Source: a virus. Taken from it: 34,856 nt of DNA. Each line of letters opens with the position of its first letter. Positions within the stretch are counted from its first letter, which is position 1. Where the stretch lies: the IMG/VR virus record IMGVR_UViG_3300038528_000023; one strand, 5' to 3'. The notes under the pieces were generated by a model, which saw only the letters and a program-made list of their open reading frames with translations, did not search any database and was not told the origin of the DNA. The position numbers were made by a program, and so were the translations under genes. Shown here piece after piece: positions 6,536-34,856 of this stretch.

Positions 6536-6870
6536 ACGCGATCGCACAAAACATGACCGACTCCGCCTATGCCCAGCTTCTGGCTCTGCGCAATGGCCAC
6601 TACGACGCCCGCGAGTGTGTGGATATGACCATCGACAGCCTGATGGAGCAGTACCAATGCAGTCGGCGGCGGGCGGCACTGGTCACCACCAAGGCATGGG
6701 CGGATCTGGAAGCCACCGGCAAGCCGCCGGCCTACGTCGATGCCAGCCTCACTACCGGCAATACCGTGGTTATCCACGACGCCAGCGGCCGCACCAACAT
6801 CTTTTCAGTGCACGAGCTCCTGCAGCTGCGGGAGCTCGTGCACAACACCATCAATCGAATCAACGCCTGA
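6532..6870 (+). CDS. Hypothetical protein
   Basis: 112 aa with an ATGA overlap onto the upstream stop. I do not recognise the family. Confidence 0.55.
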   Translation: MNAIAQNMTDSAYAQLLALRNGHYDARECVDMTIDSLMEQYQCSRRRAALVTTKAWADLEATGKPPAYVDASLTTGNTVVIHDASGRTNIFSVHELLQLRELVHNTINRINA

Positions 6871-6885: not shown

Positions 6886-9594
6886 ATGCAAGACCAGCTA
6901 AGGGCCGACATCCTTCTACGGCTCCAGAGTGACTACGAAGGCCTGGAGCGCGGCAAGTTCCTGCGCCGCCTGCGCTGCCACTCCTGTGGCAAGCGTGAAG
7001 CCTTCGTGGGCACCGACGAACCATGGATGGTGAAGTGCGGGCGTGAGAGCCGTTGCGGTGAACAGCACCACGTAAAGGAGCTGTTCCCGGATCTGTTCGA
7101 CAGCTGGACAGAGCGCTACGCCAGAACCGACCTGAAGCAAGGCGAAAAGCCCACCGGTACCGAAGTGGCCGATGCGTATATGAAGCACGGCCGCGGCTTC
7201 GATCTGGCTGTGGTGAAGGGCTGGTACAACCAGGAAACCTACTGGGATTACGAGCGCAACATCAGCAGCGCCACCGTGCGCTTCCAGATCAACGACCGCG
7301 ACCACTGGGAACGGCTGATCGACAAGCCCCACCGGTTCGGCAAAATGAAAGCCCACTTCAACCGGGGCGCCAACTTCAAAGGCCTGGCCTGGGCACCGCC
7401 CGGGCTGGACCTTTCCCAGGGCAAAGAGCTCTGGGTGGTGGAAGGCATCTTCGATGCGATCGCCTTGTGCCACGCCGGCATACCCGCCGTGGCCGCGTTC
7501 AGCTGCAACAACTACCCGGATAAGTTCCTGGACACCCTGACAGCCACCCGGGAAGAAGCGGGCCAAGACATGCCCCGCATCATCTGGGCCATGGACGGTG
7601 ACGAAGCCGGTGTTCGCTACATTGGCAAGTTTGCCAACATCGCCCGGTCACAGGGCCTGAAGGTAGGCGCTGCGGTTATCCCCCAGGAAGGCAAGTTCAA
7701 GCGTGACTGGAACGACGCCTGGCAGCGAGGCGAGCTGGTCAACGAACACGGCGAGCCGACCACCGACGAATTCCTTTACCAGGGCGACCTGGTCATTGCC
7801 CGCAGCGCTGGCGAGAAAGCCAACCGCATCTACACGCACACCAACCGGAAAGAATTCCCTTTCGGGTTCAACAACCGCCTGTTCTGGTTCAAGTTGAACA
7901 TGGACGAATTCCACAAGGCGATGAGCGACCTGGAGGAAAGCGACGAGCCGCTGACGGACAAGCAGATCGTTACCCGGGCCCTGGAACAGTGCAACGCGGT
8001 CATCGAGATCGCCAACTGCTACCCCACCGCCCTGTATTACCTGGCCAACAAGATCACCGATGAAAGCTGGTACTACTACCGTGTGGATTTCCCGCACGAC
8101 GGGCGGCCGGTTAAGAACACCTTTAGTGGCGGCCAGCTGGCCAGCGCCAGCGAATTCAAGAAGCGCCTGCTGGGCGTAGCGCCCGGTGCCGTGTGGACCG
8201 GTTCCAGCCATCAGCTGGACCGCCTGCTGAAGCAGCAAATCTCCGGCATTAAAACTGTCGAGACCATCGATTTCATCGGCTACAGCAAAGAGCACGAAAC
8301 CTGGGTATTCCCGGAACTGGCCGTTCACGCCGGGCAGATACACGAGCTGAACAACGAAGACTACTACGACATCGGCCGCATGAGCGTGAAAACGCTGTCG
8401 GAATCGGTAGCCCTGAACATCAACAAGAACTCCGCAGACTACCAGCGCGGCTGGGCTCAGGATCTGGCCAACTGTTTCGGCCCCAAGGGTGTGATCGCCC
8501 TGTCCTACTGGCTGGGCACGCTGTTCGCCGAGCAGATCCGCAAGGCACACAAAAGCTTTCCCTTCATCGAGATTGTGGGCGAAGCCGGCTCCGGTAAATC
8601 CACGTTGATCGAATTCCTCTGGAAGCTGGTTGGCCGTCAGGATTACGAAGGCTTCGACCCCAGCAAGGCCACTCTGGCCGCCCGTGCCCGTAACTTCGCC
8701 CAGGTCTCCAACTTGCCGGTGGTGCTGATCGAGTCCGACCGGGATCAGGACGGCGCCGGCGGAAAACAAAAGCAGTTCGACTGGGACGAACTGAAAACCG
8801 CCTATAACGGCCGTAGCGTGCGCAGCCGTGGCCAGAAAAACGGCGGCAATGACACCTACGAGCCGCCCTTTCGTGGCGCCATTGTGATCAGCCAGAACGC
8901 CCAGGTGAACGCCAGCGATGCCGTGCTGCAGCGCATCGTGCACCTGAACGTCACCCGCGAAAACCACAACGAAACCACCAAGGCCCTGGCCGAGAAGCTG
9001 GAGCGCACGCCCATGGAAAAGGTCAGCGGCTTCGTGCTGCAGGCCACCGCCGGCGAATCTAAGGTAATGCGCCTGGTGACTGAGCGCGCACCCCAGTACG
9101 AAAAAGCCCTGGCCGAGATGCCCGACATCCGCATCCACCGGATTGCGAAAAACCACGGGCAGCTTCTGGCCCTGGTGGATTGCCTGGGGCCGGATGGCCT
9201 GAAGCTGCTGCCCGAATCCTACCTTGAGCCAGCGCGGGAGATGGTTCAGGAAATGGCCCTGGAGCGCCAAACGTCCGTGAATGCGGACCACCCGATGGTG
9301 CAGGAGTTCTGGGAAGCGGTTGACTACATCGAGGGGCTGAACAGCTACCCGGTGCTGAACCACTACGGTGACGAAGCCAAGCTGATCGCCGTCAACCTGA
9401 AGCACTTCGAGCATGTGTGTGCAGAAGAGAAGCTGCGCATACCACCGATGAGCGAGCTAAAGCGCCACCTGAAAACATCGCGCAGCCGCAAGTTCATCGA
9501 ATCCAGCCGCACCGTCCGTTCCGTGATTCGCAGCCAGGGCAACAGTCTTGGCAGCTACAGCGTGCGGTGCTGGATCTTTGAGAAAGAGCTGTGA
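6886..9594 (+). CDS. Replication protein: Zn-finger + Toprim primase + P-loop helicase (P4 alpha / D5-like architecture)
   Basis: Cys cluster CHSCGK...CGRESRCGEQHH. Toprim motifs WVVEGIFDAIAL and AMDGDEAG. Walker A is GEAGSGKST and Walker B is VVLIESD. Confidence 0.8.
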   Translation: MQDQLRADILLRLQSDYEGLERGKFLRRLRCHSCGKREAFVGTDEPWMVKCGRESRCGEQHHVKELFPDLFDSWTERYARTDLKQGEKPTGTEVADAYMKHGRGFDLAVVKGWYNQETYWDYERNISSATVRFQINDRDHWERLIDKPHRFGKMKAHFNRGANFKGLAWAPPGLDLSQGKELWVVEGIFDAIALCHAGIPAVAAFSCNNYPDKFLDTLTATREEAGQDMPRIIWAMDGDEAGVRYIGKFANIARSQGLKVGAAVIPQEGKFKRDWNDAWQRGELVNEHGEPTTDEFLYQGDLVIARSAGEKANRIYTHTNRKEFPFGFNNRLFWFKLNMDEFHKAMSDLEESDEPLTDKQIVTRALEQCNAVIEIANCYPTALYYLANKITDESWYYYRVDFPHDGRPVKNTFSGGQLASASEFKKRLLGVAPGAVWTGSSHQLDRLLKQQISGIKTVETIDFIGYSKEHETWVFPELAVHAGQIHELNNEDYYDIGRMSVKTLSESVALNINKNSADYQRGWAQDLANCFGPKGVIALSYWLGTLFAEQIRKAHKSFPFIEIVGEAGSGKSTLIEFLWKLVGRQDYEGFDPSKATLAARARNFAQVSNLPVVLIESDRDQDGAGGKQKQFDWDELKTAYNGRSVRSRGQKNGGNDTYEPPFRGAIVISQNAQVNASDAVLQRIVHLNVTRENHNETTKALAEKLERTPMEKVSGFVLQATAGESKVMRLVTERAPQYEKALAEMPDIRIHRIAKNHGQLLALVDCLGPDGLKLLPESYLEPAREMVQEMALERQTSVNADHPMVQEFWEAVDYIEGLNSYPVLNHYGDEAKLIAVNLKHFEHVCAEEKLRIPPMSELKRHLKTSRSRKFIESSRTVRSVIRSQGNSLGSYSVRCWIFEKEL

Positions 9595-9608: not shown

Positions 9609-10091
9609 GTGGAACACACCTTCGACCAGGCCGCCGCCCTGCTGGACACCGGCCGCAACACACTGGCCCGCGAGCTTCGCAGGCTGAAGATGCTGGACAA
9701 ACACAACATGCCCGCCGGACCGTTCCGCGGGAAAGGCATATTCGTGGTGAAGACCGGCACCTATGAGCACCCAACCAGGGGCAAAACGCCCTACACCAAA
9801 ACCCTGATCACCGACCGGGGCCTGGAACTGATCCGGTACCGGCTACCGCCCAAAGAGGAAGCGCCCATGAACAACGAACCTGCAGATCAACCCACCGGCC
9901 GCGTGCACGACCTTGGAGAGCTGACCGTGATCAACGAAGACCACGGCCGCTGCCACCACCGCGTGGCCATGGTGGTGGTGTTCGATTCCCCCGAGCAAGC
10001 CCAGGCCTGCGTGAAAGCCGGATCCGTTCGCCTGGTCCCGGCCATGGACCTGAACCCGGACGCCACGGAGGCCCTGCGCCATGGCGGATAA
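9609..10091 (+). CDS. KilA-C/antirepressor-like DNA-binding protein
   Basis: The GTG at 9609 is preceded by a GGGAGG Shine-Dalgarno; the track ORF starts at GTG 9591. AALLDTGRNTLARELRRLKML...GKGIFVVKTGTYEHPTRGKTPYTKTLITDRGLELI fits the KilAC pattern. Confidence 0.5.
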   Translation: MEHTFDQAAALLDTGRNTLARELRRLKMLDKHNMPAGPFRGKGIFVVKTGTYEHPTRGKTPYTKTLITDRGLELIRYRLPPKEEAPMNNEPADQPTGRVHDLGELTVINEDHGRCHHRVAMVVVFDSPEQAQACVKAGSVRLVPAMDLNPDATEALRHGG

Positions 10092-23156: not shown

Positions 23157-23494
23157 TGGGAATGAACTCAGGCGATGGCCGATCACTGACCGGTAACGAC
23201 CACATCCGGCAAAGCATCACCGACATTCTGGCCACACCGCTGGGATCCAGAGTCATGCGCCGTGACTACGGATCGCTCATCCCGGCGCTGATCGACCAGC
23301 CGCTGAATAATGCCAACCTGCTGCGGCTTTATAGCGCAACGGTGACCGCTGTGTCGCTCTGGGAGTCCCGAGTAAGGATCAGCCGGGTAAATCGTACCGT
23401 AGACGCCAGCGGGAGGGCGGTCATTGAGATCGGGGCCACCATCAAAGACTCTGGCGAACAGCAGACATTCGGTGTTCCCGTGGGAGGTGTGTAG
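23156..23494 (+). CDS. W: Baseplate protein W (gp25/GPW family)
   Basis: HIRQSITDILATPLGSRVMRRDYGSLIPALIDQP is the GPW/gp25 signature. Confidence 0.85.
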   Translation: MGMNSGDGRSLTGNDHIRQSITDILATPLGSRVMRRDYGSLIPALIDQPLNNANLLRLYSATVTAVSLWESRVRISRVNRTVDASGRAVIEIGATIKDSGEQQTFGVPVGGV

Positions 23495-24399
23495 TGCCAA
23501 GCCATATAGATCTTTCTCTGCTGCCGGCCCCGACCATCATCGACCCGCTGGATTTCGAGACCATTCTGGAATCTAGGAAAAGCAGGCTTTTGGAGCTCAC
23601 CCCCGAATCAGAGCGCCAAGAGCTGGCCGAAACCCTGGCGCTGGAAAGCGAGCCGCTGACAAAGTTCCTCGAGGAGTCGGCATATCGAGAGCTCAATCTA
23701 CGCCAGCAGCACAATGAGCGCGCGAAGTCGCTACTTCTGGCCTATGCCACCGGCCCGGAGCTGGACCATATCGGCGTCACCTATTACCTGACTGAGCGCC
23801 TGACGCTGGACCCCGGAGAGCCTGACGCTAACCCGCCCACGCCACCAACCATGGAAAGCGACCCCGACTACCTGCGCCGTATCCTGCTGGCTCATGACGC
23901 CTTCAGCACCGCCGGCAGCCGCGAGGCTTACCGGTACTTCTCACTGAGCGCCACCCCGGCCGTAAAAGATGCCGAAGCCGTCCGGCCGATTGCGGGCGTT
24001 GTGCAGGTTTATGTCTTGTCCCGTGAAGGTGATGGCGAGGCCAGCCCTGAGCTGATAACTACCGTCGAGCTGGCGCTGAATGAAGACACCGTGCGCCCGC
24101 TCACAGATACAGTTCGGGCGGGCAGCGCCACGGTTCTGGAGTTCCAGGTGATTGCCGAGCTTGAAATACAGGATGGGCCAGATACCACCGTTGTCATTTC
24201 TGAGGCCGAACGCCGCGCCAAGCAATACGTGGAAGAGCGCCACGCCCTGGGTGCAAAAATCGTTCTGGGCGCACTGGAGGCCCGGCTTTATGCGCCCGGC
24301 GTTGAGCGGGCCACCCTGCTAAGCCCAACCGCAGACATAGGTGGCGACCGGAGCGAAGCGCCCTATTGCTCCAGCATTGAGGTGACGGCGAATGGCTAG
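23494..24399 (+). CDS. J: Baseplate protein J (P2 gpJ family)
   Basis: 301 aa with a GTG start overlapping the W stop. DLSLLPAPTIIDPLDFETILESRKSRLLEL is gpJ-like. Confidence 0.85.
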   Translation: MPSHIDLSLLPAPTIIDPLDFETILESRKSRLLELTPESERQELAETLALESEPLTKFLEESAYRELNLRQQHNERAKSLLLAYATGPELDHIGVTYYLTERLTLDPGEPDANPPTPPTMESDPDYLRRILLAHDAFSTAGSREAYRYFSLSATPAVKDAEAVRPIAGVVQVYVLSREGDGEASPELITTVELALNEDTVRPLTDTVRAGSATVLEFQVIAELEIQDGPDTTVVISEAERRAKQYVEERHALGAKIVLGALEARLYAPGVERATLLSPTADIGGDRSEAPYCSSIEVTANG

Positions 24400-25489
24400 C
24401 TTGCTGCCGCCAAACACCACCGCGCTTGAACGGCGAATAGAGCAAGTCTCTGCCGATCTGGTAGCGGCCATCGCCCCGTTTGACGCCCTTTGGGATGCCC
24501 AGCGCATGCCCGTGCACATGCTGCCCTGGCTGGGCTGGGCGACCGGCGTCGACCACTGGAGCACTGACTGGCCAGAACAGGTTAAGCGCGACGCCATAAG
24601 CGAAGCTATTCCTATTCGCCGCCGACGCGGAACCGTGTGGGCTGTCCGCCGAGCCCTGGAGGTTTTGGGCTTTAGTGATGTCGAGATCCTGGAGCACACT
24701 AGGCAGGATTCAGCCTGGCGCGAAGCCGGCGGCCTGTATGTCGATGGCAGCTTTACGGTCGATGGCACCGCTGTTCTCGGCGGACACCTGGTTAACCCGC
24801 CCAAAGTCGTCACCACCAACTGGGCTCAGTACGCCCTGGCTTTCAACATTGCAGACGCTCCGTTCACAGCCGCAGACCAGCGCCGTGTCCGGGACCGCGT
24901 CGAGAGCGCAGCCCCGCTCAGGTCCGAGCTTGTGGCGCTGCTGTATCAGTATGCCGCCACCTGGTCTGCAGAAATTACCGTCTCACCGCTAACCCAGACA
25001 GTGCAGCAGTCCTGGCAGGGCTGCGAGGGCGCACCTGTTCACCGGGCGCGCCAGCTCATGGGGTGCCAGTCCCTTTCCGGCGACTACCTCCCTCGAGTCC
25101 TTGACGGCTTCAATTCTTTGCGCGGGGACTACCAGCTCACCGGCCAGCAACCGACCGGCGAACCGCTGGACCAGGGCTGGGGCACCATCGACATACAGAT
25201 TAAGCAGCGCACCACCGCCGCCGCGCAAGCCTCAAGCCGGAACCACTGGACTCTGGGCGAAACCGAAACCGACACGCTGGATGCCAGCTGGGGCCTGAAC
25301 GAGATCATCGACGGCCACCGCTCCATTGACGGCACCTGGGGGCTCGCTCTTTCCCAGCTATACCAGGTCCGAAAAACACCACTGGACGGCATTCGGCTGC
25401 TGGGAGAAAAGACAACCATTAATTCCATCGGGACAGACGCCCATGCCGTGCTACGGGACCGCAGACAGCGCAAGGAGATTCGATTGTGA
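24392..25489 (+). CDS. I: Tail protein I (P2 gpI family) with a ~190-aa C-terminal extension
   Basis: MASLLPPNTTALERRIEQVSADL...MLPWLGWATGVDHWSTDWPEQVKRDAISEAIPIRRRRGTVWAVRRALEVLGF is gpI-like. At 365 aa it is about twice the size of P2 gpI. Confidence 0.8.
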   Translation: MASLLPPNTTALERRIEQVSADLVAAIAPFDALWDAQRMPVHMLPWLGWATGVDHWSTDWPEQVKRDAISEAIPIRRRRGTVWAVRRALEVLGFSDVEILEHTRQDSAWREAGGLYVDGSFTVDGTAVLGGHLVNPPKVVTTNWAQYALAFNIADAPFTAADQRRVRDRVESAAPLRSELVALLYQYAATWSAEITVSPLTQTVQQSWQGCEGAPVHRARQLMGCQSLSGDYLPRVLDGFNSLRGDYQLTGQQPTGEPLDQGWGTIDIQIKQRTTAAAQASSRNHWTLGETETDTLDASWGLNEIIDGHRSIDGTWGLALSQLYQVRKTPLDGIRLLGEKTTINSIGTDAHAVLRDRRQRKEIRL

Positions 25490-25845
25490 CAACCGTGATA
25501 CCCGCAACTGAAATATACCGGGCGAAGGTGGCGGCCGCAGCGGCTGCCGGCACCGCTGTGCCAGCCATAACCGCTGTGGCCTGGGGCACCGGGAGCGCGC
25601 CAACAAGCCCAGACGATCAGGCCCTGGCCAGCGAGGACCACCGGCAGGCGGTGGATTCCGCCGTGGCCGATGGCGTCACCCTGAAAATCGGCGCAACGCT
25701 GGAAGGCGACAGCGTGCTGGGGCGGTCCATTCGGGAAATCGGCCTGTTCGATTCCGAGGGTGACCTGGCCGCACGAAGAGTTCACAGCCCGCTGGAGCTG
25801 GATTCCGGCACCAGCATTGTCGCGACACTAGACCTACAGTTCTGA
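25486..25845 (+). CDS. Stand-alone tail-fibre N-terminal (tail-collar, DUF3751-like) adaptor protein
   Basis: AKVAAAAAAGTAVPAITAVAWGTGS...IREIGLFDSEGDLAARRVHSPLELDSGTSIVATLDLQF parallels the first ~140 aa of P2 gpH. It ends with its own stop codon. Confidence 0.6.
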   Translation: MTTVIPATEIYRAKVAAAAAAGTAVPAITAVAWGTGSAPTSPDDQALASEDHRQAVDSAVADGVTLKIGATLEGDSVLGRSIREIGLFDSEGDLAARRVHSPLELDSGTSIVATLDLQF

Positions 25846-25862
25846 TCAGACGAGGACCAACC

Positions 25863-27887
25863 ATGACACAGCAAATTACCATTACCGACCCGCAGTTCAG
25901 CGAAGAGCTGCGCGCCATTCAGACCACCGACCCGGCACATCCGGACACCTGGAACCCGCAGTTCACCGATCTGCTGGCCAATGACCACTGGCTGCGCACC
26001 CTGATCCTGCAAACCCAGAACCAGGTGGAAGACATTCTGGGCAGTGACCCTATCAACCTGTCAGATCGGCTTGACGCCCTGGTTCAATACGGCGCGCAAC
26101 GCGTTTTTGTTGAGCGTGCAGAACAAGTGCCTGAGTTTGTGATCGAATCCGCTGTGGGCGGCGATGACAGCATCGACCTGGTAAGCACTGCCGGCATTCA
26201 GCCTGGCCAGCACTATTTCATTGTTGACTCTGGAAACACCCAAAGCGTTCGGGTTCGTCAAGTGCTCTCGGATAAGCGCATCACGCTGTACGGCTCGCTC
26301 ACCAGCACCGTCGCTGTGGGCTCAACCCTTGGCCGCCTTGCTCCGGCAGAGTACGCAACGCCAGAGCTGACAGACATGGAGCGCGGCGCTTATTTGCACG
26401 TGCAGGGCTCAAACCTGGCAGCACGGTATTGGATCGGCAGTGCGTGGCAGAACCTGACAGCACGGGCAGACGGCAGCTGGAACATCCCCAGCAACGTCAC
26501 GCGCTTGCGCGTGATGGGCGTTATTTCCCGCGTCGCGATCATCACAGCCTTGCCGATCGGCGTCACCCGCCGCCCCGAAAACATCTCACCGGCCGCCGCC
26601 GCCACCGGTGTAACAGCAACGCCAGAGTTGGTCGGTTCGCCTTATTACCCCCTGTACGGCGTGCCGCAAAATCTCCGCCGGTTTTACATCTTCAGACTGA
26701 ACGAAGACGTGCCAGTCTACGAAGCCGACGAGACGCCGCTTGACGAAAATCCGATCGAAGCTCACACGGTTGCATCGCCAATAGACGTGGGCTCAGATCA
26801 CGAATGGCAGTACCAGGACGAAAACGTGGAAGGCGAGTGGGCGCAGCGCTCACCCCGCACCCGTTTCGGTACCGCTGACACCTACATCGACACGCCGAGC
26901 GTTACAAGCCCGGCAGCTGGCGCAACCGACATACCTGAGCAGCCGGTTATCGAGCTGTCCGCATTTAACGTAATCAGCGGCACAGACGAGCACGTGGCCA
27001 CGTCACTGCGTATTCGCGACAGCGCCGGCGGCATTGTTTACGACGTGATCCGCTCTGAAACGCAGCTCACCAGCGTCACGGTGCCCGCAGATATCCTGCA
27101 GCCAGGCCAGACTTACACTATTGAGCCGCAGTACCACGGCGCGGTCTATGGCGATTCCGCCCGCGGCGCCGGCAGCAGCATCACAACGTCTGCATCGTTT
27201 GTGCCTGATTTTGATACCGAGATCGGCGCACCCTACGGCGGCGGTTATGTCGCGGGCAAAATTGTCTCAGATTACGACGGTCAGACGTACGGCCTTGTTG
27301 TGTCGGACGGCGGTGGCGACAGCGTTAAGATGGGCGACGGAACAATGAGCTGGCGCACCGCTAACATGGCTGTGACCGGCACTGCAGGCGTGCCGCCGAT
27401 GACCCTGGCCGACGGCCGCACAAATCACAACGCCATTCTTGCGCTGAATAGCTTGTCTGAGTTTCCGGCTTTTAAGTGGATTGAAGACAACTGCAACGCG
27501 GCCCAGGGTCTGAATGGCCACACCGACTGGTACCTGCCAAGCCGCGACGAGCTTGAAATCCTCTATCGAAACTTCAAGCCCGACACCACGGCAAACAACA
27601 CCTCCGCTCGCCAAACTACGGGTTTCGGCGGTGATGGCGCCACTTTCGGTACTAACGCAAATTCGCGACCCACTCAAACTGGCTACACCGCAGGAGACCC
27701 AGCGCAAACCGACCGTGAAAGCTTCAAAGGCGCGTCCGCCGACGCTTTCGAGCCCAGCAACTACTGGTCATCGACGGAGGTCGATGCGAGCAGCGCCTGG
27801 GGCCAGAAGTTCAGCAATGGCAGCCAGTACCGGTACTACAAGACGAGCAGCACCCGGGTGCGTGCCGTCAGGAGGATTGCACTTTAA
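25863..27887 (+). CDS. DGR target: tail-fibre distal protein with C-terminal DUF1566 / C-type-lectin-fold variable domain
   Basis: GAGGA Shine-Dalgarno. The C-terminus HTDWYLPSRDELEILY...NYWSSTEVDASSAWGQKFSNGSQYRYYKTSSTRVRAVRRIAL has DUF1566-like motifs. The last 135 coding nt before the final 4 codons form the VR. Confidence 0.85.
   Translation: MTQQITITDPQFSEELRAIQTTDPAHPDTWNPQFTDLLANDHWLRTLILQTQNQVEDILGSDPINLSDRLDALVQYGAQRVFVERAEQVPEFVIESAVGGDDSIDLVSTAGIQPGQHYFIVDSGNTQSVRVRQVLSDKRITLYGSLTSTVAVGSTLGRLAPAEYATPELTDMERGAYLHVQGSNLAARYWIGSAWQNLTARADGSWNIPSNVTRLRVMGVISRVAIITALPIGVTRRPENISPAAAATGVTATPELVGSPYYPLYGVPQNLRRFYIFRLNEDVPVYEADETPLDENPIEAHTVASPIDVGSDHEWQYQDENVEGEWAQRSPRTRFGTADTYIDTPSVTSPAAGATDIPEQPVIELSAFNVISGTDEHVATSLRIRDSAGGIVYDVIRSETQLTSVTVPADILQPGQTYTIEPQYHGAVYGDSARGAGSSITTSASFVPDFDTEIGAPYGGGYVAGKIVSDYDGQTYGLVVSDGGGDSVKMGDGTMSWRTANMAVTGTAGVPPMTLADGRTNHNAILALNSLSEFPAFKWIEDNCNAAQGLNGHTDWYLPSRDELEILYRNFKPDTTANNTSARQTTGFGGDGATFGTNANSRPTQTGYTAGDPAQTDRESFKGASADAFEPSNYWSSTEVDASSAWGQKFSNGSQYRYYKTSSTRVRAVRRIAL
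27740..27874 (+). repeat. DGR variable repeat (VR)
   Basis: 135 bp collinear with the TR at a constant offset of 696 nt. There are 13 mismatches, 12 of them opposite TR adenines. Confidence 0.9.
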
Positions 27888-27922
27888 ACTTTTCTTTCCA
27901 CTTTTATTTGGGGTGTTTCGCT

Positions 27923-28264
27923 ATGAAGGCGAAAGAATTGCCGATTTATCGGGACACATTTGAGCTCATGAAATTGATCACCCAGATGACGCGGAATTTC
28001 CCGCGTGATCTGAAGATATCCCTGGGCGAGCGGTTGAGATCCGATTGCCTGGACATCGTGATCAACGTGTACCGCGCCAACGCGGCGCGAGATGGCCGCC
28101 GGCCGATAATCTCAGCCATTTTGGAGACCGTTCAAGTGGTTGAAATGACCATCCGGCTTTGCTGCGACCTTGCGTTAATCAGTAAAAAACAGCACGGCCA
28201 GCTGGTTGAGCGAACGGACGCTATCGGCCGTCAGGCCTACGGCTGGGAAAAGGCGAGTAAGTGA
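27923..28264 (+). CDS. avd: Accessory variability determinant (Avd-like four-helix-bundle protein)
   Basis: 113 aa. MKAKELPIYRDTFELMKLITQMTRNFPRDLKISLGERLRSDCLDIVINVYRAN matches the four-helix-bundle / 23S-rRNA-IVS protein family used as Avd. It lies between the target and the TR. Confidence 0.8.
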   Translation: MKAKELPIYRDTFELMKLITQMTRNFPRDLKISLGERLRSDCLDIVINVYRANAARDGRRPIISAILETVQVVEMTIRLCCDLALISKKQHGQLVERTDAIGRQAYGWEKASK

Positions 28265-28435
28265 CTTTTCAGGTAAACACGGCCAGAACGCGCAGGGCCA
28301 AGGCTTTGCGCGGCGAGCCAATAATCTCGGACTGCTCCCGCAGGGTTCGGCTTGCCCGGGCCCCGCGAAAAGGCGAAAGCCAGTTTCACGGCGGTTTTAA
28401 TATCCCGCGGTGCGACGTGACAGTGAGCAGCTTAA

Positions 28436-28570
28436 CGACGCTTTCGAGCCCAGCAACTACTGGTCATCGACGGAGAACGATGCGAGCAACGCCTGGAACC
28501 AGAACTTCAACAATGGCAACCAGAACCGGAACAACAAGACGAACAGCAACCGGGTGCGTGCCGTCAGGAG
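28436..28570 (+). repeat. DGR template repeat (TR)
   Basis: Non-coding copy of the VR. In the target frame it holds 12 AAC codons plus one AAT, and 43 adenines by hand count. It ends 6 nt before the RT start. Confidence 0.9.
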
Positions 28571-28576
28571 ATCATA

Positions 28577-29680
28577 GTGTTTACTGTTGAAGAGGTCTTT
28601 CAAGCTTATTACGATTGCCGCAGAAATAAGCGCAATGCGCTGTCACAGTGCGATTTCGAGCTGCGACTGGAGCGCAATCTCATGAAGTTAATGCGCGACC
28701 TTAACGCTGGCGCCTATCGCATTGGCCGGTCAATCGCATTTGTGGTCAGTTACCCAAAATGGCGCGAAGTGTGGGCGGCTCAGTTCCGCGACAGGGTGGT
28801 GCACCACATCATCTACAACCGGGTGTCTGACCGCTTCTATCGCCGGTTTATTCACGACAGCTATGCCTGCATCCCCGGGCGTGGCTCATTGAAAGGGGTT
28901 GAGCGGATCCACGGATTCATGCGCAAGGCGACTGAAAACTGGCAGCACCCCGCCTGCTTTCTGCAAGCCGATTTGGCGAATTTCTTTGTCAGCATCGATA
29001 AAGACATTCTGTTCAATTTGCTGCGCAAGCGAATAGACGACGATGAGACTCTCAATCTGACCGCTCAAGTGTTGTTTCACGACCCAACCCAGCGCCCGAT
29101 CGTGAACAGTCCGGCGTGGAAATTCCGCCACGTGCCGCACCACAAAAGCCTTTTCAATAGTGGTAACAAAGGGCTTCCGATCGGGAATCTATCGAGCCAG
29201 TTTTTCGCCAACGTTTATCTCGACGCTATGGACCAGTTCGTAAAGCGCGACCTGGGCGTGCGCTGGTACGGGCGTTATGTCGATGACGTGGTTCTGATCG
29301 GTAAAACGCCTGCAGAACTGAACGACGCGTTTGAGGCCATGAAAACGTTCGCGTTGACGCAGCTGGATGTACATTTCCACCCCAATAAAACGCAAAGAAA
29401 CAGCGTCTATCGCGGTATTAATTTCTGCGGCTACGTGATGCTGCCGCACCGCCGGTACGTTCGCCGGCGCAGCACAAATGCCATGAAAGCCGTAGCGCAC
29501 AGCGCCGAAAGACACGACAACCCAGAAGCCTGGGCCTCAAGAATGAACAGCTACCTGGGCATTTGCCAGCACGCCAACACCTACAACCTGCGGAAGTCGT
29601 TGGCCGTCGAAACCGGCATTGCCTTCCGTGGGCAACTAACGAAAGTCACCCCCTGCCAACCGAAGAGGACCGCAGCATGA
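28577..29680 (+). CDS. DGR reverse transcriptase
   Basis: 367 aa with a GTG start. It carries the DGR-specific motif LPIGNLSSQFFANVYL (I/LGxxxSQ), the catalytic YVDD, and SYACIPGRGSLKG. Confidence 0.9.
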   Translation: MFTVEEVFQAYYDCRRNKRNALSQCDFELRLERNLMKLMRDLNAGAYRIGRSIAFVVSYPKWREVWAAQFRDRVVHHIIYNRVSDRFYRRFIHDSYACIPGRGSLKGVERIHGFMRKATENWQHPACFLQADLANFFVSIDKDILFNLLRKRIDDDETLNLTAQVLFHDPTQRPIVNSPAWKFRHVPHHKSLFNSGNKGLPIGNLSSQFFANVYLDAMDQFVKRDLGVRWYGRYVDDVVLIGKTPAELNDAFEAMKTFALTQLDVHFHPNKTQRNSVYRGINFCGYVMLPHRRYVRRRSTNAMKAVAHSAERHDNPEAWASRMNSYLGICQHANTYNLRKSLAVETGIAFRGQLTKVTPCQPKRTAA

Positions 29681-30198
29681 GCAACAAATACGTTACCGCT
29701 TATTACCTGGACGCCAGAGACGGCCGCCCGGCCAACGAAGCGCCACTTCGCCACGGCCCGAAACGGCCCAGCGACAACCTGAAGGTCAGCGTAGTTGACC
29801 GGCGCCAGTCCCCCGCTCTGATCGTTGGGCACATTCCCTCCAGCGAGTCACCGGCTCCGGGCATGGTTCTGATCGATAAGGCCGAGCACGACAGCCTGGT
29901 GGCCGAGGTTGAGAGCTGGAGGATTGACAATGAAATGCGCGAGCTGCAGAAGTGGCGCGCCGGTATGGTGCTGTCCCGATTTCAAGCCCGCGCCGTTCTT
30001 CGCCGTTACGGTTACCGGGACCAGATCGAGCAAATGATGGCAGCGCCCGAGACCGACCCGCTCGCCGTGGACGCATGGAACGACGCCAGCGAGTTCCGGC
30101 GCCTGTCGCCAATGCTGAACGGCTTGGGCGCTCAGTTGGGCATTACAGATGATGAGCTTGATCTGATGTTTGAAGAGGGGATCGCCATCGAAGCCTAG
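29677..30198 (+). CDS. Putative tail-fibre assembly/chaperone-like protein (P2 gpG position)
   Basis: 173 aa with an ATGA overlap onto the RT stop. It is the last gene before the sheath gene. The function is inferred from position only. Confidence 0.35.
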
Positions 30199-30229
30199 GG
30201 TCACCCAAAAGCCAGGGACGGCTGGGGTT

Positions 30230-30250
30230 TTGTGCGTTTGTTGCAGACAA
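30230..30250. promoter_or_regulatory. TTGT-N13-ACAA dyad upstream of the sheath gene (PF position)
   Basis: TTGTgcgtttgttgcagACAA, with its centre 87 bp upstream of the FI ATG. Confidence 0.5.
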
Positions 30251-30326
30251 CTTAAACGAATGGCTGCGAGCGCCGCAGGGTTCATCATGGCACCTATACC
30301 CCGGCAAAACCAAACCAGGAGGCGCT

Positions 30327-31841
30327 ATGCCAGACCAATACCACCACGGGGTTCGAGTGCTCGAAATCAACGAAGGCACCCGGACCATCCGTACCGTTGC
30401 AACAGCCATCATCGGCCTTGTGGCTACCGCTCCGGAAGCGTCCACTGGCGTAAAAGCCGAGGCCGCAATCCGAACCATTGCCGACAACGGCGATATCATT
30501 TTCACCGCCTTGGAGGCAGGCACTTCCGGAAACCAGATCCGCGTCCGGTACGTCGACCCAGGCACAGCAGCGTCCACCCTGGAAGTGACCGTGGCCGGGC
30601 AAGACATTACCGTCAGTCTGGCCACTGACGCCGAGGCGGTTGTTACCAGCACCGCACAGGACATCGTCACCGCCGTTAACGGCAGCGCCGAAGCTTCCGC
30701 CCTGGTCTCTGCAGCCCTGGACGATGGCAACACCGGCGCGGGCCTGGCCAACATCGCGGACTACACCAAGCTCAGCGGGGGCGAAAACGAAGCCTTCCCG
30801 CTGAACACCCCGGTACTGGTTACAAACGTTCTGGACGCCATTGGCGATGCGGGCACCACCGGTACTCTGCCAGCGGCACTGGACGCCATTGCAGACCAGG
30901 CCAGCGCCATTGTGGTGGTGGTGCGGGTAGAGGAAGGCGCTGAAGCCAACGAAACCGAGGCCAACGTGATTGGCACTGTCACCCCGGAAGGCAAAAAGAC
31001 TGGCCTGAAAGCGCTGTTGGCCGCCGAACAGAACCTGGGCGTAAAACCCCGCATAATCGGCGTGCCCGGCCTCGACACTGAGAACGTCACCGCTGAAACC
31101 ATCAGCATTGCCCAGAAGCTGCGGGCCTTCGTGTACGCCAGCTGCTACGGCTGCGCCACTATCGAAGACGCCATCATGTACCGCAATGGCTTCGGTGCCC
31201 GCGAGCTAATGCTTGTCTGGCCCGACTTCGTCGCCTTCAACGTGAACACCGCAACCTCTGGCACCGCTCACGCTGTCGCCCGAGCCATGGGCTTGCGCGC
31301 CAAGATCGATCAGCAGGTGGGCTGGCACAAAACCCTGTCTAACGTTGCTGTGAACGGCGTAACCGGCATCAATAAAGACGTGCACTGGGATCTGCAAGAC
31401 CCCAACACCGACGCCGGGCTGCTCAACGCCAACGAAGTCACCACCCTGATCCAGCGTGACGGCTTCCGGTTCTGGGGTTCCCGCACCTGCAGCGCAGACC
31501 CCTTGTTCCAGTTCGAGAACTACACCCGCACCGCCCAGATCCTGGCCGACACCATCGCCGAGGCGCACATGTGGGCAGTGGACAAACCCATGCACCCGTC
31601 GCTGGCAAAAGACATCATCGAAGGCATCAACGCCAAGTTCCGCGAACTCAAAGCGCTGGGCCTGCTGATCGATGCGCGCGCCCGGTTCGATGCAGAAGCC
31701 AACACCAAGGACACCCTGAAGGCTGGCAAGCTCTACATCGACTACGACTACACCCCAGTGCCCCCGCTGGAAAACCTCCTGCTGCGTCAGCGCATCACCG
31801 ACCGCTACCTGGTCGACTTCGCTGCCCGCGTGAACTCCTAA
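30327..31841 (+). CDS. FI: Tail sheath protein (P2 gpFI family) with a ~115-aa N-proximal insertion
   Basis: [34 protein letters not shown] and the C-terminus [26 protein letters not shown] parallel P2 FI. The protein is 504 aa against about 396 in P2. Confidence 0.9.
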
Positions 31842-32808: not shown

Positions 32809-34856
32809 TGTCTAAGAGCCTGGACCTTCAGGTCATCCTGGCAGCCCGCGACAAGGTCACCGGGCCGCTGAAGAAAATCAACGCATCATCCACCGGAACC
32901 GCCAAGGCCCTGAAAAAAAGCCAGCAGGAAATCAAGCAGCTGAAGGGTGCCCAGCGGGACGTTTCCTCGTTCCGTAAAATGGACCGCGCCATCAAGGACA
33001 ACGGCACCGCGCTGTCTGCCTCTCAGGAGAAGGTGCGGCAGCTGGGCCAGGAGCTCAAAAGCACCAGCAAGCCCACCGCGAAACTCCGCTCCGAATACAA
33101 CAAGGCCCGCAAGGAAGTTGAGCAGTTCACCCGTAAGGGTCAGGAGCAGAGGAAAGAGCTGGGCGCCGTTCGCAAGCGCCTGAAGGATGCCGGCATCAGC
33201 ACACGCAACCTGGCCGACGAAGAGCGCCGGCTGGCCGAGCGGATGAAGACCGCCAACGACCGCATTCAGCGCCAGAAACGACACCTGGAACAACTGGGCA
33301 AAGCCGACGTATCCGGCAAGTTCCGCAACATGACCGGCGAAGTCGGCAAGTTCGGGCGGCGTACAGCCATGCTGGGTGGTGCGGCCGCCGGTGGGATCTT
33401 CGCGGTGGCCAACTCAACGGCGACCTTGGGCGACAGCGTTGCAAAGACCGCCGACAAGATCGGTGTGGCCCTGGGGCCCTACCAGGAATTGCGCTACGCA
33501 GCAGAACGATCAGGCATATCCACGCAGAAGCTGGACAGCAACATGGTGGCCTTTACCAAGCGGCTGGGCGAAGCCAAGCAAGGTACTGGCGCGGCGCGCA
33601 AAGCATACGACCAGCTGGGCCTGTCATCGTCGCGGCTGGCCGAAATGACACCGGAAGACGCGCTGAACGTGGTGGCCGATCGGCTGGCTTCGGTGGACAG
33701 CCAAACCGAACGGGTGGCGCTGGCATCTCAGATGTTCAGCCGCGAAGGCGTTGGCATGGTCAACATGCTGAAAGACGGCAGCGGCGGCCTTAAGGAGCTG
33801 CGAAGGCAGGCGCAGGAAACCGGCTATGTGCTGAGCGATAAAGCCGCGCGGGATGCCGAGGTGTTCAAGGACTCGCTTCTGGACGCACAGCTAGGCTTGG
33901 CCGGCATGAAGAACACGATCGGTGCCGAGCTTATGCCCGCGATCAGCGACATGATGGGAGACCTGTCTGGCTGGATGAAAGAGAACCGGGACCACGTGAA
34001 AGCCTTCGCGAAGGATTTCGGGCAGCGACTCAAGGATGCCGTTCCGGTGCTTCGGGATATAGCGACGGGCGCTGCTTCTATGGCAGGCACTCTGGCGTCC
34101 ATAACCGGTGCTCTGGCTAAGGTGGTTGGTGGCTTCGATAACTTGGGCATGATCATCGCTTTCCTTTTCGCGATGAAGCCGGTCATGGCCATTCTGGCTT
34201 TCGGCAAGGCTATCTTTGCAGCCACAACCGCCGTTATAGGGCTGGCCGGTGGACTGCCCGCCGTGGCGGCTGGCGTTAAAGCAATCGGCGCCGCCCTGAC
34301 CGCCAACCCGATTGGCATCATCATTGCCGCCATCGGGGCGGCGGCCTACCTGATCTATAAGAACTGGGATGGCATAGCCAGCTGGTTCAAAGGGATCTGG
34401 GGTGAAGTGACTTCCGCCTTCGACGATGGCCTGGGCGGCATTGCCAAGCTCCTGGTGAACTGGTCGCCGATAGGCCTGCTCTACAAAGGCTTCTCCGCCC
34501 TTATGAGCTGGCTGGGCGTAGACATGCCAGCCAACCTTACCGGCGCCGGCGGCAAGATGATCGCTGGCCTGGTGTCGGGAATCCGCAACGCGGCCAGCGC
34601 TGTGGCTGGCGTCCTGTCCGGACTCTGGGGAAACATTAAAGGCGCGTTTAGCGACGGCATAGCCGGTGTCGGCAAGCTGATCCTCAACTGGTCGCCGCTG
34701 GGGCTTTTCTACAAAGCTTTCAAAGGCGTACTGGGCTGGTTCGGTGTAGACCTGCCCGAGAGCTTCACCGGCTTCGGAAAGCAGATTCTGGACGGACTGG
34801 TGGGCGGCATCATGGGCGGCCTGAACAAGGTAAAAGAAACCATCACCGGCGCCGGC
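32805..34856 (+). CDS. T: Tail tape measure protein, N-terminal part (runs off the window end and continues at nt 358)
   Basis: ATGATG start at 32805. No stop codon before the window end. Coiled-coil N-terminus, a hydrophobic central region (IIAFLFAMKPVMAILAFGKAIFAATTAVIGLAGG), then the repeat region. The joined product would be about 1001 aa. Confidence 0.85.
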   Translation, partial: MMSKSLDLQVILAARDKVTGPLKKINASSTGTAKALKKSQQEIKQLKGAQRDVSSFRKMDRAIKDNGTALSASQEKVRQLGQELKSTSKPTAKLRSEYNKARKEVEQFTRKGQEQRKELGAVRKRLKDAGISTRNLADEERRLAERMKTANDRIQRQKRHLEQLGKADVSGKFRNMTGEVGKFGRRTAMLGGAAAGGIFAVANSTATLGDSVAKTADKIGVALGPYQELRYAAERSGISTQKLDSNMVAFTKRLGEAKQGTGAARKAYDQLGLSSSRLAEMTPEDALNVVADRLASVDSQTERVALASQMFSREGVGMVNMLKDGSGGLKELRRQAQETGYVLSDKAARDAEVFKDSLLDAQLGLAGMKNTIGAELMPAISDMMGDLSGWMKENRDHVKAFAKDFGQRLKDAVPVLRDIATGAASMAGTLASITGALAKVVGGFDNLGMIIAFLFAMKPVMAILAFGKAIFAATTAVIGLAGGLPAVAAGVKAIGAALTANPIGIIIAAIGAAAYLIYKNWDGIASWFKGIWGEVTSAFDDGLGGIAKLLVNWSPIGLLYKGFSALMSWLGVDMPANLTGAGGKMIAGLVSGIRNAASAVAGVLSGLWGNIKGAFSDGIAGVGKLILNWSPLGLFYKAFKGVLGWFGVDLPESFTGFGKQILDGLVGGIMGGLNKVKETITGAG
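34425..34856 (+). repeat. Copy of nt 460-891 (and, for its last 357 nt, of nt 1-357)
   Basis: Identity was read directly. The track ORFs 34481..34687(-) and 516..722(-) also translate identically. Confidence 0.9.

Follow-up and report, generated by a model that had tools for sequence, protein, structure and literature searches.

The prototype diversity-generating retroelement (DGR) is that of the podovirus BPP-1, which is arranged mtd–avd–TR–brt, with a structured spacer of ~140 nt (Rfam RT-10) reaching from TR to brt (PMC5737381; bioRxiv 10.1101/2023.10.23.563531) and with a target site marked by an IMH at the VR 3' end and by a hairpin/cruciform further downstream (PMC3240598). A DGR acting on a split fibre was described in 2023 for the P2-like temperate Pseudoalteromonas phages ACA1 and ACA2 (Peduoviridae), where most of the divergence between the sister phages is due to the VR (PMC10612066), and DUF1566 is a recognised class of DGR target, referred to as CLec2 in the DGR literature and accounting for 14% of a curated DGR set (Wu et al. 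2018, PMC5758913). The original prediction for the locus described here gave it a high rating of interest and left it open whether a P2-like phage with a diversified DUF1566 fibre had been reported before; these publications answer that question and make the rating too high, and we regard the locus as a clear new example of a well-known DGR system and not as a new kind of system.

We are highly confident that the window (the whole 34,856-nt stretch of viral DNA that was analysed) carries a functional and currently active DGR which rewrites the distal fibre tip of a temperate P2/phiCTX-like (Peduoviridae-type) phage, most likely from the Halomonadaceae. The features of the cassette and the surrounding fibre module are as follows:

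25486–25845, plus strand: gpH-type N-terminal (baseplate-attachment) domain protein of 119 aa (Pfam PF12571, tail-fibre PHROGs)
25863–27887, plus strand: DGR target, probable distal fibre subunit of 674 aa (Pfam Lcl_C, predicted structures, gene order)
27740–27874, plus strand: VR, encoding target residues 627–671, with variation opposite TR adenines
27854–27874, plus strand: invariant G+C-rich 3' end of the VR (CCGGGTGCGTGCCGTCAGGAG), the same as TR 28550–28570 and in an IMH-like position
27923–28264, plus strand: avd (accessory variability determinant), 113 aa (Pfam bAvd, PHROG 3206)
28278–28437, plus strand: structured non-coding RNA in the avd–TR spacer, a trimmed relative of Rfam RT-15 (RF03018), supported by covariation
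28436–28570, plus strand: TR, with 43 adenines and 12 in-frame AAC codons, the same sequence in three related genomes (L001, L004 and L005)
28577–29680, plus strand: DGR reverse transcriptase (RT) of 367 aa, with a GTG start 6 nt past the TR and the motifs IGNLSSQ and YVDD
29677–30198, plus strand: fibre-module gene for a 173-aa protein in the P2 gpG position, outside the retroelement and with a homologue in a DGR-less prophage

The order of target, avd, TR and RT is the same as in BPP-1, the RT and Avd proteins are homologous, and in both systems the 3' end of a tail-fibre tip gene is subject to adenine-specific transfer from TR to VR, but BPP-1 is a podovirus with Mtd as the target whereas the window represents a P2-like myovirus with a DUF1566/Lcl_C target domain. 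All of the coordinates and counts in the original prediction were reproduced, as were the target, avd and RT reading frames. A repeat search returned a single pair of gapless 135-nt direct repeats with 90% identity, and in a base-by-base comparison 12 of the 13 mismatches lie opposite TR adenines (seven A→G, four A→T and one A→C); the chance of at least 12 of 13 falling at A is 3.3e-6 (hypergeometric, with 43 A in the 135-nt TR). The sole non-adenine mismatch, TR C28505 to G27809, turns an AAC codon into AAG. Eleven of the 12 AAC codons which the TR holds in the target frame are changed in the VR (to V, S, G, K, S, S, Y, Y, Y, S and T). The VR ends 13 nt before the target stop codon and thus lies at the 3' end of the ORF, and as self-BLAST of the whole window found no extra TR-like copies, we conclude that there is a single VR.

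Homology between the repeats stops at 27874/28570. The last 21 nt of the VR contain three adenines, all constant in the six VR/TR pairs we compared, in which the variable columns stop at index 113, and by analogy with the BPP-1 model this segment is a putative initiation-of-homing (IMH) site. No convincing post-VR hairpin or cruciform was found in the window, unlike BPP-1, the best candidate being a weak 7-bp hairpin 42 nt downstream of the VR (z −1.04); in a Vreelandella venusta relative (L022), a G+C hairpin (8-bp stem, 4-nt loop) was spotted by eye, without folding, after the VR.

Three genomes (L001, L004 and L005) share 99.5–99.7% identity with the window over 6.6–8.0 kb and 99.7–99.9% outside the VR, and these assembled contigs, like the protein cluster members considered below, are population consensus sequences and not reads of the source sample. 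Their TRs are identical to that of the window while their VRs differ from its VR at 15–16 of the 135 positions (11–12%), compared with 0.13–0.31% elsewhere, and homing must therefore have occurred later than the divergence of these genomes. The six VR/TR pairs have 30 variable VR columns, of which 26 are at TR adenines; G→T at VR index 66 in L002 and L004 is a non-adenine change. The 90% cluster of the target protein includes 14 members of the same length which have 14 distinct VR peptides but just six biallelic sites outside the VR. All 12 AAC positions vary among them, as do target positions 641, 648 and 652 (A-containing codons), and every residue seen at the AAC positions is reachable by A-mutagenesis with the exception of K649 in the window. 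The same cassette is found in prophages of V. venusta (L022) and Chromohalobacter canadensis (L032), where 10 of 10 and 17 of 17 TR/VR mismatches, respectively, are at TR adenines. Judged from these comparisons, diversification is demonstrably ongoing and one-way, with the VR changing and the TR constant, and the mutagenic-homing signature first read from one repeat pair is matched by VR-confined, adenine-specific variation in nature.

As the contigs are metagenome assemblies, in which a VR may be a consensus or chimera of co-existing variants, the VR differences might be attributed to ordinary recombination or mixed-population assembly instead of reverse transcription. We find this barely credible, since neither would limit the changes to TR adenines (26 of 30 columns, and 12 of 13 mismatches in the window with P 3e-6), limit the residues to those reachable from AAC, or spare the TR and the flanks. 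It is also very unlikely that the adenine pattern is a record of past mutagenic homing by an element which no longer works. Cassettes can be lost, as seen in two DGR-less relatives (L033 and L034) which have neither avd nor RT but still a VR-equivalent that looks diversified, and both the single non-adenine change in the window VR and the absence of a strong post-VR hairpin could be read as signs of such decay; against this, every ORF is intact with the catalytic motifs kept, the VRs of genomes 0.13–0.31% apart elsewhere have diverged by 11–12% beside identical TRs, and all 14 cluster members have different VRs. An active DGR is thus the reading we prefer.

The RT matches RVT_1 (E 2.8e-14) and PHROG 1423 (E 1.8e-98), and the DGR-type motifs [ILV]GxxxSQ and Y[MV]DD are present as IGNLSSQ and YVDD. 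Its best PDB match in a phmmer search is the Bordetella phage bRT 8ub7 (E 5.4e-40, compared with 1.6e-7 for the best non-DGR RT, which is group II-like), it has 30.7% identity with BPP-1 Brt across 95% of its length (tblastn), and its N-terminus is conserved from the first residues on among 12 homologues. These matches support the predicted membership of the DGR RT clade. Neither an RT outside that clade nor a VR that is invariant or varies without adenine specificity, the two outcomes named as refuting the original prediction, was observed. The Avd-like gene was also correctly recognised, with a Pfam bAvd score of 42.4 bits (cut-off 40) and a match to PHROG 3206 'Avd protein of DGR' (E 9e-26); the NCBIfam DivGenRetAVD score of 47.9 bits (E 1.3e-12) is below the equivalog cut-off of 80.

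The closest RTs, with 47–48% identity, belong to the Pseudomonas phages Cruim01, LPPA56 and SC_8_H2H8_2017 and a Gallionella MAG, which form an RT-15-bearing clade. Their DGRs have DUF1566 targets with C-terminal domains homologous to aa 454–674 of the window target, and they share its layout of avd, structured RNA adjoining the TR, and RT straight after the TR. However, they carry a tandem pair of short, stand-alone DUF1566 targets (~205 aa) with one VR apiece, whereas the window has one DUF1566 domain fused to a long FN3-like shaft, and unlike the window, Cruim01 and LPPA56 have no P2-type tail genes beside the DGR. As in the window, the ACA fibre is divided, with a 'hub attachment' polypeptide (gpH-N) encoded apart from the antireceptor, after which come avd, TR, RT and one small additional gene (PMC10612066), but the ACA RT is of another DGR lineage which groups with VHML/VP585-type RTs and the L024 RT (35%), and ACA1 and ACA2 are absent among the top 30 phage matches listed for the window RT. 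Furthermore, the ACA RT has an N-terminal extension translated from the TR while the window TR is out of frame with its RT, the ACA tail module differs from that of P2 (PMC10612066) while the window keeps the P2/phiCTX order, and the target domain differs, as there was no tblastn match between the ACA phages and the window target.

PHROG and Pfam assignments recovered the P2 gene order (Q, P / O, N, M, L; V, W, J, I, H; FI, FII, E, T, U, D), with portal and large terminase on the minus strand and scaffold, capsid, small terminase and head-completion protein on the plus strand; further matches were to Baseplate_J, Tail_P2_I, sheath, tube, tape measure and gpD, and the capsid is 60% identical to that of phiCTX. 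Gene order and hallmark proteins confirm a P2/phiCTX-like phage of Peduoviridae type. The P2-like chassis of the original prediction therefore stands, but the family name given there, 'Peduovirinae', is now Peduoviridae. The host is probably a salt-loving member of the Halomonadaceae.

Within the fibre module, homologues of gpJ (23494–24399) and gpI (24392–25489) precede the 119-aa protein, which matches Pfam PF12571 Phage_tail_fib (E 7e-7, over the curated cut-off), and the target gene follows in the gpH position, after gpJ–gpI–gpH(N) and before the sheath. The target is predicted to have an N-terminal helical segment, several FN3-like beta-sandwich domains (~aa 80–445) and a C-terminal DUF1566/Lcl_C domain (~aa 450–674; Pfam Lcl_C over aa 543–670, E 7.5e-12). 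The full-length AlphaFold model (pLDDT 75) has FN3 tandem domains and the lambda tail tip as structural matches, while the best PDB match of the C-terminal model (pLDDT 95.7) is the Legionella Lcl C-terminal domain 8q4e (E 1.4e-4), with 4eps also matched, and its BFVD fold matches include DUF1566 phage proteins, one of them annotated as a tail fibre protein. Thus the DUF1566 part of the predicted 'DUF1566/CLec-like' C-terminus holds, but the fold is of the Lcl_C type, with classical C-type lectins matched by Foldseek only at E about 1, and of the folds suggested for comparison, DUF1566 was matched (8q4e) while Mtd and TvpA were absent among the 50 Foldseek matches listed. The C-terminal VR motif YWSST...RVRAVRR resembles those in the published alignment of the DUF1566 class, where the VR also lies in a DUF1566-type domain (PMC5758913).

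A related protein, P0030 of L023, is a single polypeptide in which the gpH N-terminal domain is joined to a region homologous to target aa 201–674, and its N-terminus has 35% identity with the 119-aa protein. This fused relative and the gene order support the earlier identification of the target as the distal fibre protein, and we propose a fibre of two polypeptides, with the 119-aa protein as a gpH-type baseplate adaptor and the 674-aa target as shaft and tip, the DUF1566/Lcl_C tip presumably binding the receptor. We think it quite improbable that the active DGR acts instead on some other virion-associated or lysogen-expressed surface protein, such as an adhesin or exclusion factor. No Pfam fibre domain was found within the 674-aa target itself, Lcl_C/DUF1566 domains also occur in bacterial adhesins such as Legionella Lcl, DUF1566 DGR targets include LdtA, a chromosomal surface lipoprotein of Legionella pneumophila and not a phage fibre like the window target (PMC5758913), and the prophage variant of the ACA1 antireceptor was noted as unexpectedly abundant (PMC10612066); on the other hand, the gene is flanked by gpI/gpH-N on one side and the sheath on the other, as expected for gpH, P0030 joins both parts, the FN3-like shaft domains are like those of other tail-tip proteins, and a tail fibre protein is among the BFVD matches.

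The 173-aa protein encoded after the RT has no Pfam or NCBIfam match and only matches PHROG 6034, a family of unknown function, but it is 53% identical to the product of the gene directly after the target homologue in the DGR-less Vreelandella sp. EE22 prophage (L034), and N-terminal homologues occur in L032, L033 and L023; its position suggests a putative role in fibre assembly. One relative has an ACA1-type DGR at the corresponding position. Judged from these genome comparisons, the avd–RNA–TR–RT block has been inserted as a module, with the fibre gene on one side and the conserved 173-aa fibre-module gene on the other.

By analogy with BPP-1, from which we infer the priming and homing steps, the avd–TR–RT region would be transcribed and the RT together with Avd would make cDNA from the TR RNA, misincorporating at template adenines; this cDNA would replace the VR at the 3' end of the distal fibre subunit gene. 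Randomisation would affect the 12 positions encoded by AAC along with a few further codons that contain A, giving ~1e14 combinations from the AAC codons alone, and these positions would lie within the C-terminal strands of the DUF1566/Lcl_C domain, presumably the receptor-binding tip.

Unlike BPP-1, where the structured spacer follows the TR, the window RT starts 6 nt past the TR and the structured RNA is on the 5' side, adjoining the TR such that its 3' end is formed by the first TR bases. A cmscan of 196 nt matched it to RT-15 with 38 bits (E 7e-8), below the gathering score of 82, and the match was not reported by a scan of 951 nt. The alignment covers model positions 1–192, with one internal stem (41 positions) reduced to 6 nt in the window, and the RNA consists of a P1 hairpin (28281–28319) and a long-range helix (28329–28337 with 28425–28432) around three hairpins. 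Of the 41 pairs in the consensus of 13 distinct homologues, 16 have compensatory changes, and 98.7% of cells are paired; none of 500 shuffles matched the observed covariation and slid controls were 32–45% paired. This consensus, which was derived independently of RT-15, agrees with it in the P1 hairpin and in the long-range helix around the other hairpins, both supported by covariation. In the RT-15-bearing clade the RNA is a full RT-15 (172–188 bits), with one stem more than that of the window, and the copies in Cruim01, LPPA56 and the Gallionella MAG also end at the TR start. The spacer is a covariation-supported structured RNA which shares its overall architecture and genomic position with RT-15.

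The RT-15-like RNA is most likely the accessory RNA of an RT–Avd ribonucleoprotein. The region 3' of the TR, which in BPP-1 holds the essential spacer, showed no conserved structure. Between the spacer RNA and the TR 3' end, no conserved duplex of 5 bp or longer was seen, so the priming step cannot be mapped onto the BPP-1 scheme. We tentatively suggest, giving the idea somewhat less than even weight, that the RT-15 clade, including the trimmed Halomonadaceae variant, has a DGR accessory RNA that is permuted relative to BPP-1, with all of the conserved structure 5' of the TR, including a bulged-stem hairpin with a YAMG/UACG-type tetraloop that is similar to the Avd-binding stem-loop reported for BPP-1, and none 3', where the RT ORF starts 3–15 nt past the TR. 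If this is true, cDNA priming and termination would be organised otherwise than in BPP-1 cis-priming, and the orphan Rfam motif RT-15 would gain a function as the scaffold of a DGR ribonucleoprotein.

A repeat search of 25000–30500 found one long direct repeat, ungapped, 135 nt in length and 90% identical, formed by the variable repeat (VR) at 27740–27874 and the template repeat (TR) at 28436–28570 of the diversity-generating retroelement (DGR). In a base-by-base comparison 12 of the 13 mismatches are opposite TR adenines (7 A→G, 4 A→T and 1 A→C), which has a hypergeometric probability of 3.3e-6 for at least 12/13 given the 43 A in the 135-nt TR, and 11 of the 12 AAC codons in the target frame of the TR are changed in the VR. 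The repeat pair, its coordinates and the mismatch counts were thus all reproduced as the original prediction had described them, and neither self-BLAST nor short-word BLAST of the TR found a second target or VR in the window. An invariant G+C-rich 21-nt end (a putative IMH) is present, with the IMH and hairpin signals recognisable in part only, and the fold of a post-VR hairpin in the window is weak and non-significant. We note that, ~33 nt past its VR, the Vreelandella venusta prophage L022 has an 8-bp G+C hairpin (GGGCGGTG-GTGA-CACCGCCC, ~10052–10071; GTGA loop) resembling the BPP-1 target-recognition hairpin, whereas the window and its close relatives are without this type and show just a weak hairpin that covers the start codon of avd (27916–27934).

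The genes and domain associated with the repeats were assigned as follows.

Features of the DGR and matches to protein family models
aa 543–670 of 25863–27887: C-terminal domain of the target, Pfam Lcl_C (PF07603, formerly DUF1566), E 7.5e-12
27923–28264: avd, Pfam bAvd above threshold, PHROG 'Avd protein of DGR' at E 9e-26, NCBIfam Avd model at E 1.3e-12 and below its cut-off
28577–29680: reverse transcriptase (RT), RVT_1, PHROG 1423 at E 1.8e-98, with IGNLSSQ and YVDD motifs

The top match of the RT among solved structures is the BPP-1 DGR RT (8ub7, E 5.4e-40), followed by a group II intron-like RT at E 1.6e-7, and in tblastn searches it shares 30.7% identity with the BPP-1 enzyme Brt over 95% of its length and 47–48% with RTs of several Pseudomonas phages. 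On these comparisons the RT clearly groups with the DGR RTs. No promoter-like sites were found in 27600–30400, terminator-like sites were no more frequent than expected by chance, and a tRNA scan detected none.

Evidence for DGR activity comes from three related contigs (L001, L004 and L005) recovered by an IMG/VR scan with the RT as query, which are 99.5–99.7% identical to the window across 6.6–8.0 kb. Their TRs are the same as the window TR without any differences, and their VRs differ from the window VR at 15–16 of 135 positions (11–12%), compared with 0.13–0.31% in the flanks. Across six VR/TR pairs, TR adenines account for 26 of the 30 variable VR columns. The same pattern was seen in the 90%-identity protein cluster of the target (34 members), in which the 14 listed members of equal length vary at 12/12 AAC-encoded positions and at three further A-containing codons (641 GAT, 648 CAG and 652 AAT), with just six biallelic sites outside the VR. 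All residues found at the AAC positions in these 14 proteins are obtainable from AAC through adenine changes, bar K649 of the window itself. The original prediction had named an invariant VR, or one varying without adenine specificity, as evidence against a DGR; in the related genomes the VR is instead variable and adenine-specific and the TR is constant. Variation of this kind among near-identical genomes implies repeated homing since their divergence, and from these assembled contigs we infer that the DGR is naturally active, with priming and homing steps that would, by analogy, be those of BPP-1.

The sole non-adenine mismatch in the window pair, TR C28505 to VR G27809, converts AAC to AAG (K649), a residue which adenine mutagenesis of AAC cannot reach, and a second non-adenine change, G→T at VR index 66, adjoins a mutated AAC in both L002 and L004, two of the related contigs. 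Such changes could stem from rare RT errors at bases other than A or from ordinary point mutation.

The fibre is split between a 119-aa ORF (25486–25845) with a gpH-type N-terminal baseplate-attachment domain (PF12571) and the 674-aa target which starts 17 nt further on. In L023, a P2-like prophage without a DGR, both parts belong to one 656-aa protein, with the first ~100 residues matching the 119-aa ORF at 35% identity and residues 174–656 matching target residues 201–674 at 47% identity, and this joining of adaptor and target homologues in one protein supports our reading of the target as the probable distal portion of the tail fibre. A full-length AlphaFold model of the target (pLDDT 75) has a helical N-terminus followed by a chain of beta-sandwich domains, and its fold matches are FN3 arrays and the lambda tail tip. 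The full-length search was set aside as a guide to the tip, as the FN3 repeats dominated it and it was uninformative on that region, and for this reason the C-terminal domain was modelled on its own. The model of the last 225 residues, built from 70 homologues, is confident (pLDDT 95.7, pTM 0.93), and in the PDB it is best matched by the C-terminal domain of Legionella Lcl (8q4e, E 1.4e-4) and by 4eps, a fimbrial protein from Bacteroides. Of the folds suggested for comparison in the original prediction, DUF1566/Lcl_C was borne out and Mtd and TvpA were absent among the listed matches, with classical C-type lectins appearing only at E about 1. Searched against a viral structure library, the model matched DUF1566 phage proteins, among which are collagen-repeat proteins and one annotated as a tail fibre protein. 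The domain is common to more than 1000 proteins at E < 1e-6, the majority of those listed being stand-alone proteins of ~210 aa. The VR codes for the final four or five beta-strands of this domain, and we calculate a theoretical repertoire of 15^12 (~1.3e14) for the 12 AAC codons alone. By analogy with BPP-1, the target tip would bind the receptor.

The window, a JGI contig of 34,856 bp, is in P2 gene order, with the portal and large terminase on the minus strand and the scaffold, capsid, small terminase, head-completion and then lysis genes on the plus strand, downstream of which are gpV/W/J/I, the fibre region, sheath, tube, tape measure and gpD. It also includes a phiCTX-type primase and a CI/LexA-like repressor (3913–4587, minus strand), and the capsid shares ~60% identity with its counterparts in phiCTX and Halomonas phage vB_HboP_4908. 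At 6808–6843, ~45 nt upstream of the primase gene (902 aa, 6886–9594), is a near-perfect palindrome of 36 nt (94%) that could be an operator or origin-related site. Both window ends are inside a repeated tape-measure segment (1–357, 34500–34856 and 535–891 are 100% identical, and 450–891 and 34415–34856 share 99.3% identity). The window is probably a complete, circularly assembled genome, apparently joined through an internal tandem repeat of ~534 nt, so that the tape-measure repeat copy number is uncertain.

Target homologues were found in the chromosomes of V. venusta and Vreelandella sp. EE22 and in contigs of Chromohalobacter canadensis, Halomonas sp. and Motilimonas sp. In the V. venusta prophage (CP085241.1, around 416–434 kb) the genes between capsid and tape measure, both included, are ordered as in the window, and its 136-nt VR/TR pair has 10/10 mismatches at TR adenines; in the C. 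canadensis prophage the corresponding count is 17/17. Because these prophage relatives carry target homologues and matching cassettes, the host is most likely a member of the Halomonadaceae, an assignment based on the relatives. No integrase was found among the annotated ORFs of the window, although the relatives are integrated prophages.

Full-length target homologues without avd, TR or RT are present in Motilimonas sp. (L033) and Vreelandella sp. EE22 (L034), where the gene right after the target is homologous to the 173-aa ORF at 29677–30198 (53% identity in L034) and the sheath comes next. This position directly after the target indicates that the 173-aa gene is part of the fibre module, in the P2 gpG position, and judging from these gene orders the avd–RNA–TR–RT block is an insertion between the two. 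The 173-aa ORF has no Pfam match even at E 10 and no NCBIfam match. The VR-equivalents in both DGR-less relatives (L033 3501–6039 and L034 3501–6119) are still diversified-looking (Y/S/G-rich), suggesting that diversification preceded loss of the cassette. A further relative, L024 (8001–12943 of ENA contig k141_43844), has the chassis and 119-aa adaptor seen in the window followed by an 885-aa fibre with a different tip and an ACA1/VHML-type DGR, in which a 121-nt TR is in frame with a 422-aa RT (35% identical to the RT of Pseudoalteromonas phage ACA1) and 10/10 mismatches are at A. Since this DGR differs from that of the window, two unrelated DGR types occupy one slot in sister phages. The differences, almost all in the VR, among near-identical genomes, the sister prophages, the cassette-less relatives and the unrelated DGR at the same position together show that, in this group of phages, DGR cassettes behave as interchangeable units of the fibre locus.

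Beyond the original prediction, we found a structured RNA in the 171-nt avd–TR spacer, which by eye is seemingly more conserved between the window and V. venusta than the adjacent coding DNA. The corresponding spacer in Pseudomonas phage Cruim01 (RT 48% identical) is annotated as Rfam RT-15, and cmscan finds the full RT-15 in Cruim01, LPPA56 and a Gallionella MAG at 172–188 bits, in each case with the 3' end a few bases from the TR start. An Rfam scan of the whole window at gathering thresholds returned nothing and a permissive 951-nt scan missed RT-15; only in a 196-nt cmscan does 28278–28437 align to the full RT-15 model (38 bits, E 7e-8, short of the gathering threshold of 82 bits), and here 6 nt stand in place of an internal stem that spans 41 model positions. 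A single-sequence fold from the avd stop to the RT 5' end is no better than shuffles (z −0.19), and the structure is visible through covariation only. Pattern scans of IMG/VR and JGI metagenomes provided 13 distinct RNA homologues, each directly followed by an AAC-rich TR (one further metagenome match, L042, was discarded as chance), and the RNAalifold consensus has five helices and 41 pairs, 16 of which have compensatory changes. In the covariation test 98.7% of cells are paired and 0/500 shuffles equal the observed covariation, and slid controls are 32–45% paired. No conserved structure was found in the 150 nt 3' of the TR (the RT ORF start; −5.5 kcal/mol and 2 weak covarying pairs), nor any conserved BPP-1-like template:primer duplex of at least 5 bp at ≥90% pairing between the RNA and the TR 3' end.

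In BPP-1 an essential structured RNA, the Sp region (Rfam RT-10), is located between TR and brt (PMC5737381), where it wraps around the RT, binds to Avd and primes synthesis of the cDNA, and 207 of 278 Avd-type DGRs have a putative Avd-binding stem-loop downstream of the TR (bioRxiv 10.1101/2023.10.23.563531). In the clade of the window, the structured RNA seems to lie on the opposite (5') side of the TR. This RNA might be a true permutation of the BPP-1-type ribonucleoprotein, a reading towards which we are somewhat sceptical. With the orphan motif RT-15 or a trimmed variant directly 5' of the TR and no TR–RT spacer, the clade provides a natural test of the generality of BPP-1 RNA-guided priming. 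A literature search for RT-15 (RF03018) in DGRs gave nothing relevant past the original motif paper. It should be noted that in four Clostridia/Bacilli MAGs (L011, L012, L013 and L017) the Rfam RT-14 RNA adjoins distant DGR-type RTs, variously upstream or downstream, and RT-14 may be another orphan 'RT' motif acting as a DGR accessory RNA.

VRs of the DUF1566 type form an established class of DGR target (category 'd'/CLec2, which makes up 14% of a curated set, with a Legionella DGR as an example; PMC5758913), and a Mu-like Chromohalobacter phage with a DGR has been published (PMC9769972). In 2023 a DGR was reported from P2-like phages whose fibre is split, the Pseudoalteromonas phages ACA1 and ACA2, and according to the authors DGRs were absent from all other characterised P2-like phages (PMC10612066). 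The ACA1 record has the order seen in the window (gpJ, gpI, hub-attachment subunit, antireceptor, avd and RT) and the two DGRs are the same kind of system, but their RT lineages, target domains, TR frames and tail-module types are different, and a small gene placed like our 173-aa gene was grouped otherwise in the ACA1 study. The closest RTs are those of Cruim01, LPPA56 and the Gallionella MAG, which have two tandem DUF1566 targets of ~205 aa each (L025 1996–3301, L026 1980–3319 and L008 4579–5324), each with its own VR and served by one TR, whereas in the window there is just one target, which is fused to the fibre shaft. In the 38-kb P. aeruginosa phage Bise (L053, OR683401.1, 1–7029), a baseplate J/tail-protein module precedes an Avd-like 'four helix bundle protein' and an RT 55.6% identical to that of L024, which together look like a further unannotated DGR beside the tail genes of a contractile-tail phage.

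The element and the RNA findings leave the general picture of what DGRs are unchanged, and add to the few DGRs known from P2-like phages one that is well documented and naturally active. The natural controls are unusually good, as they include near-identical genomes differing almost only in the VR, the same fibre without a cassette and an unrelated DGR at the same site, and the sister prophages in sequenced isolates of Vreelandella venusta and Chromohalobacter canadensis could be induced for tests.
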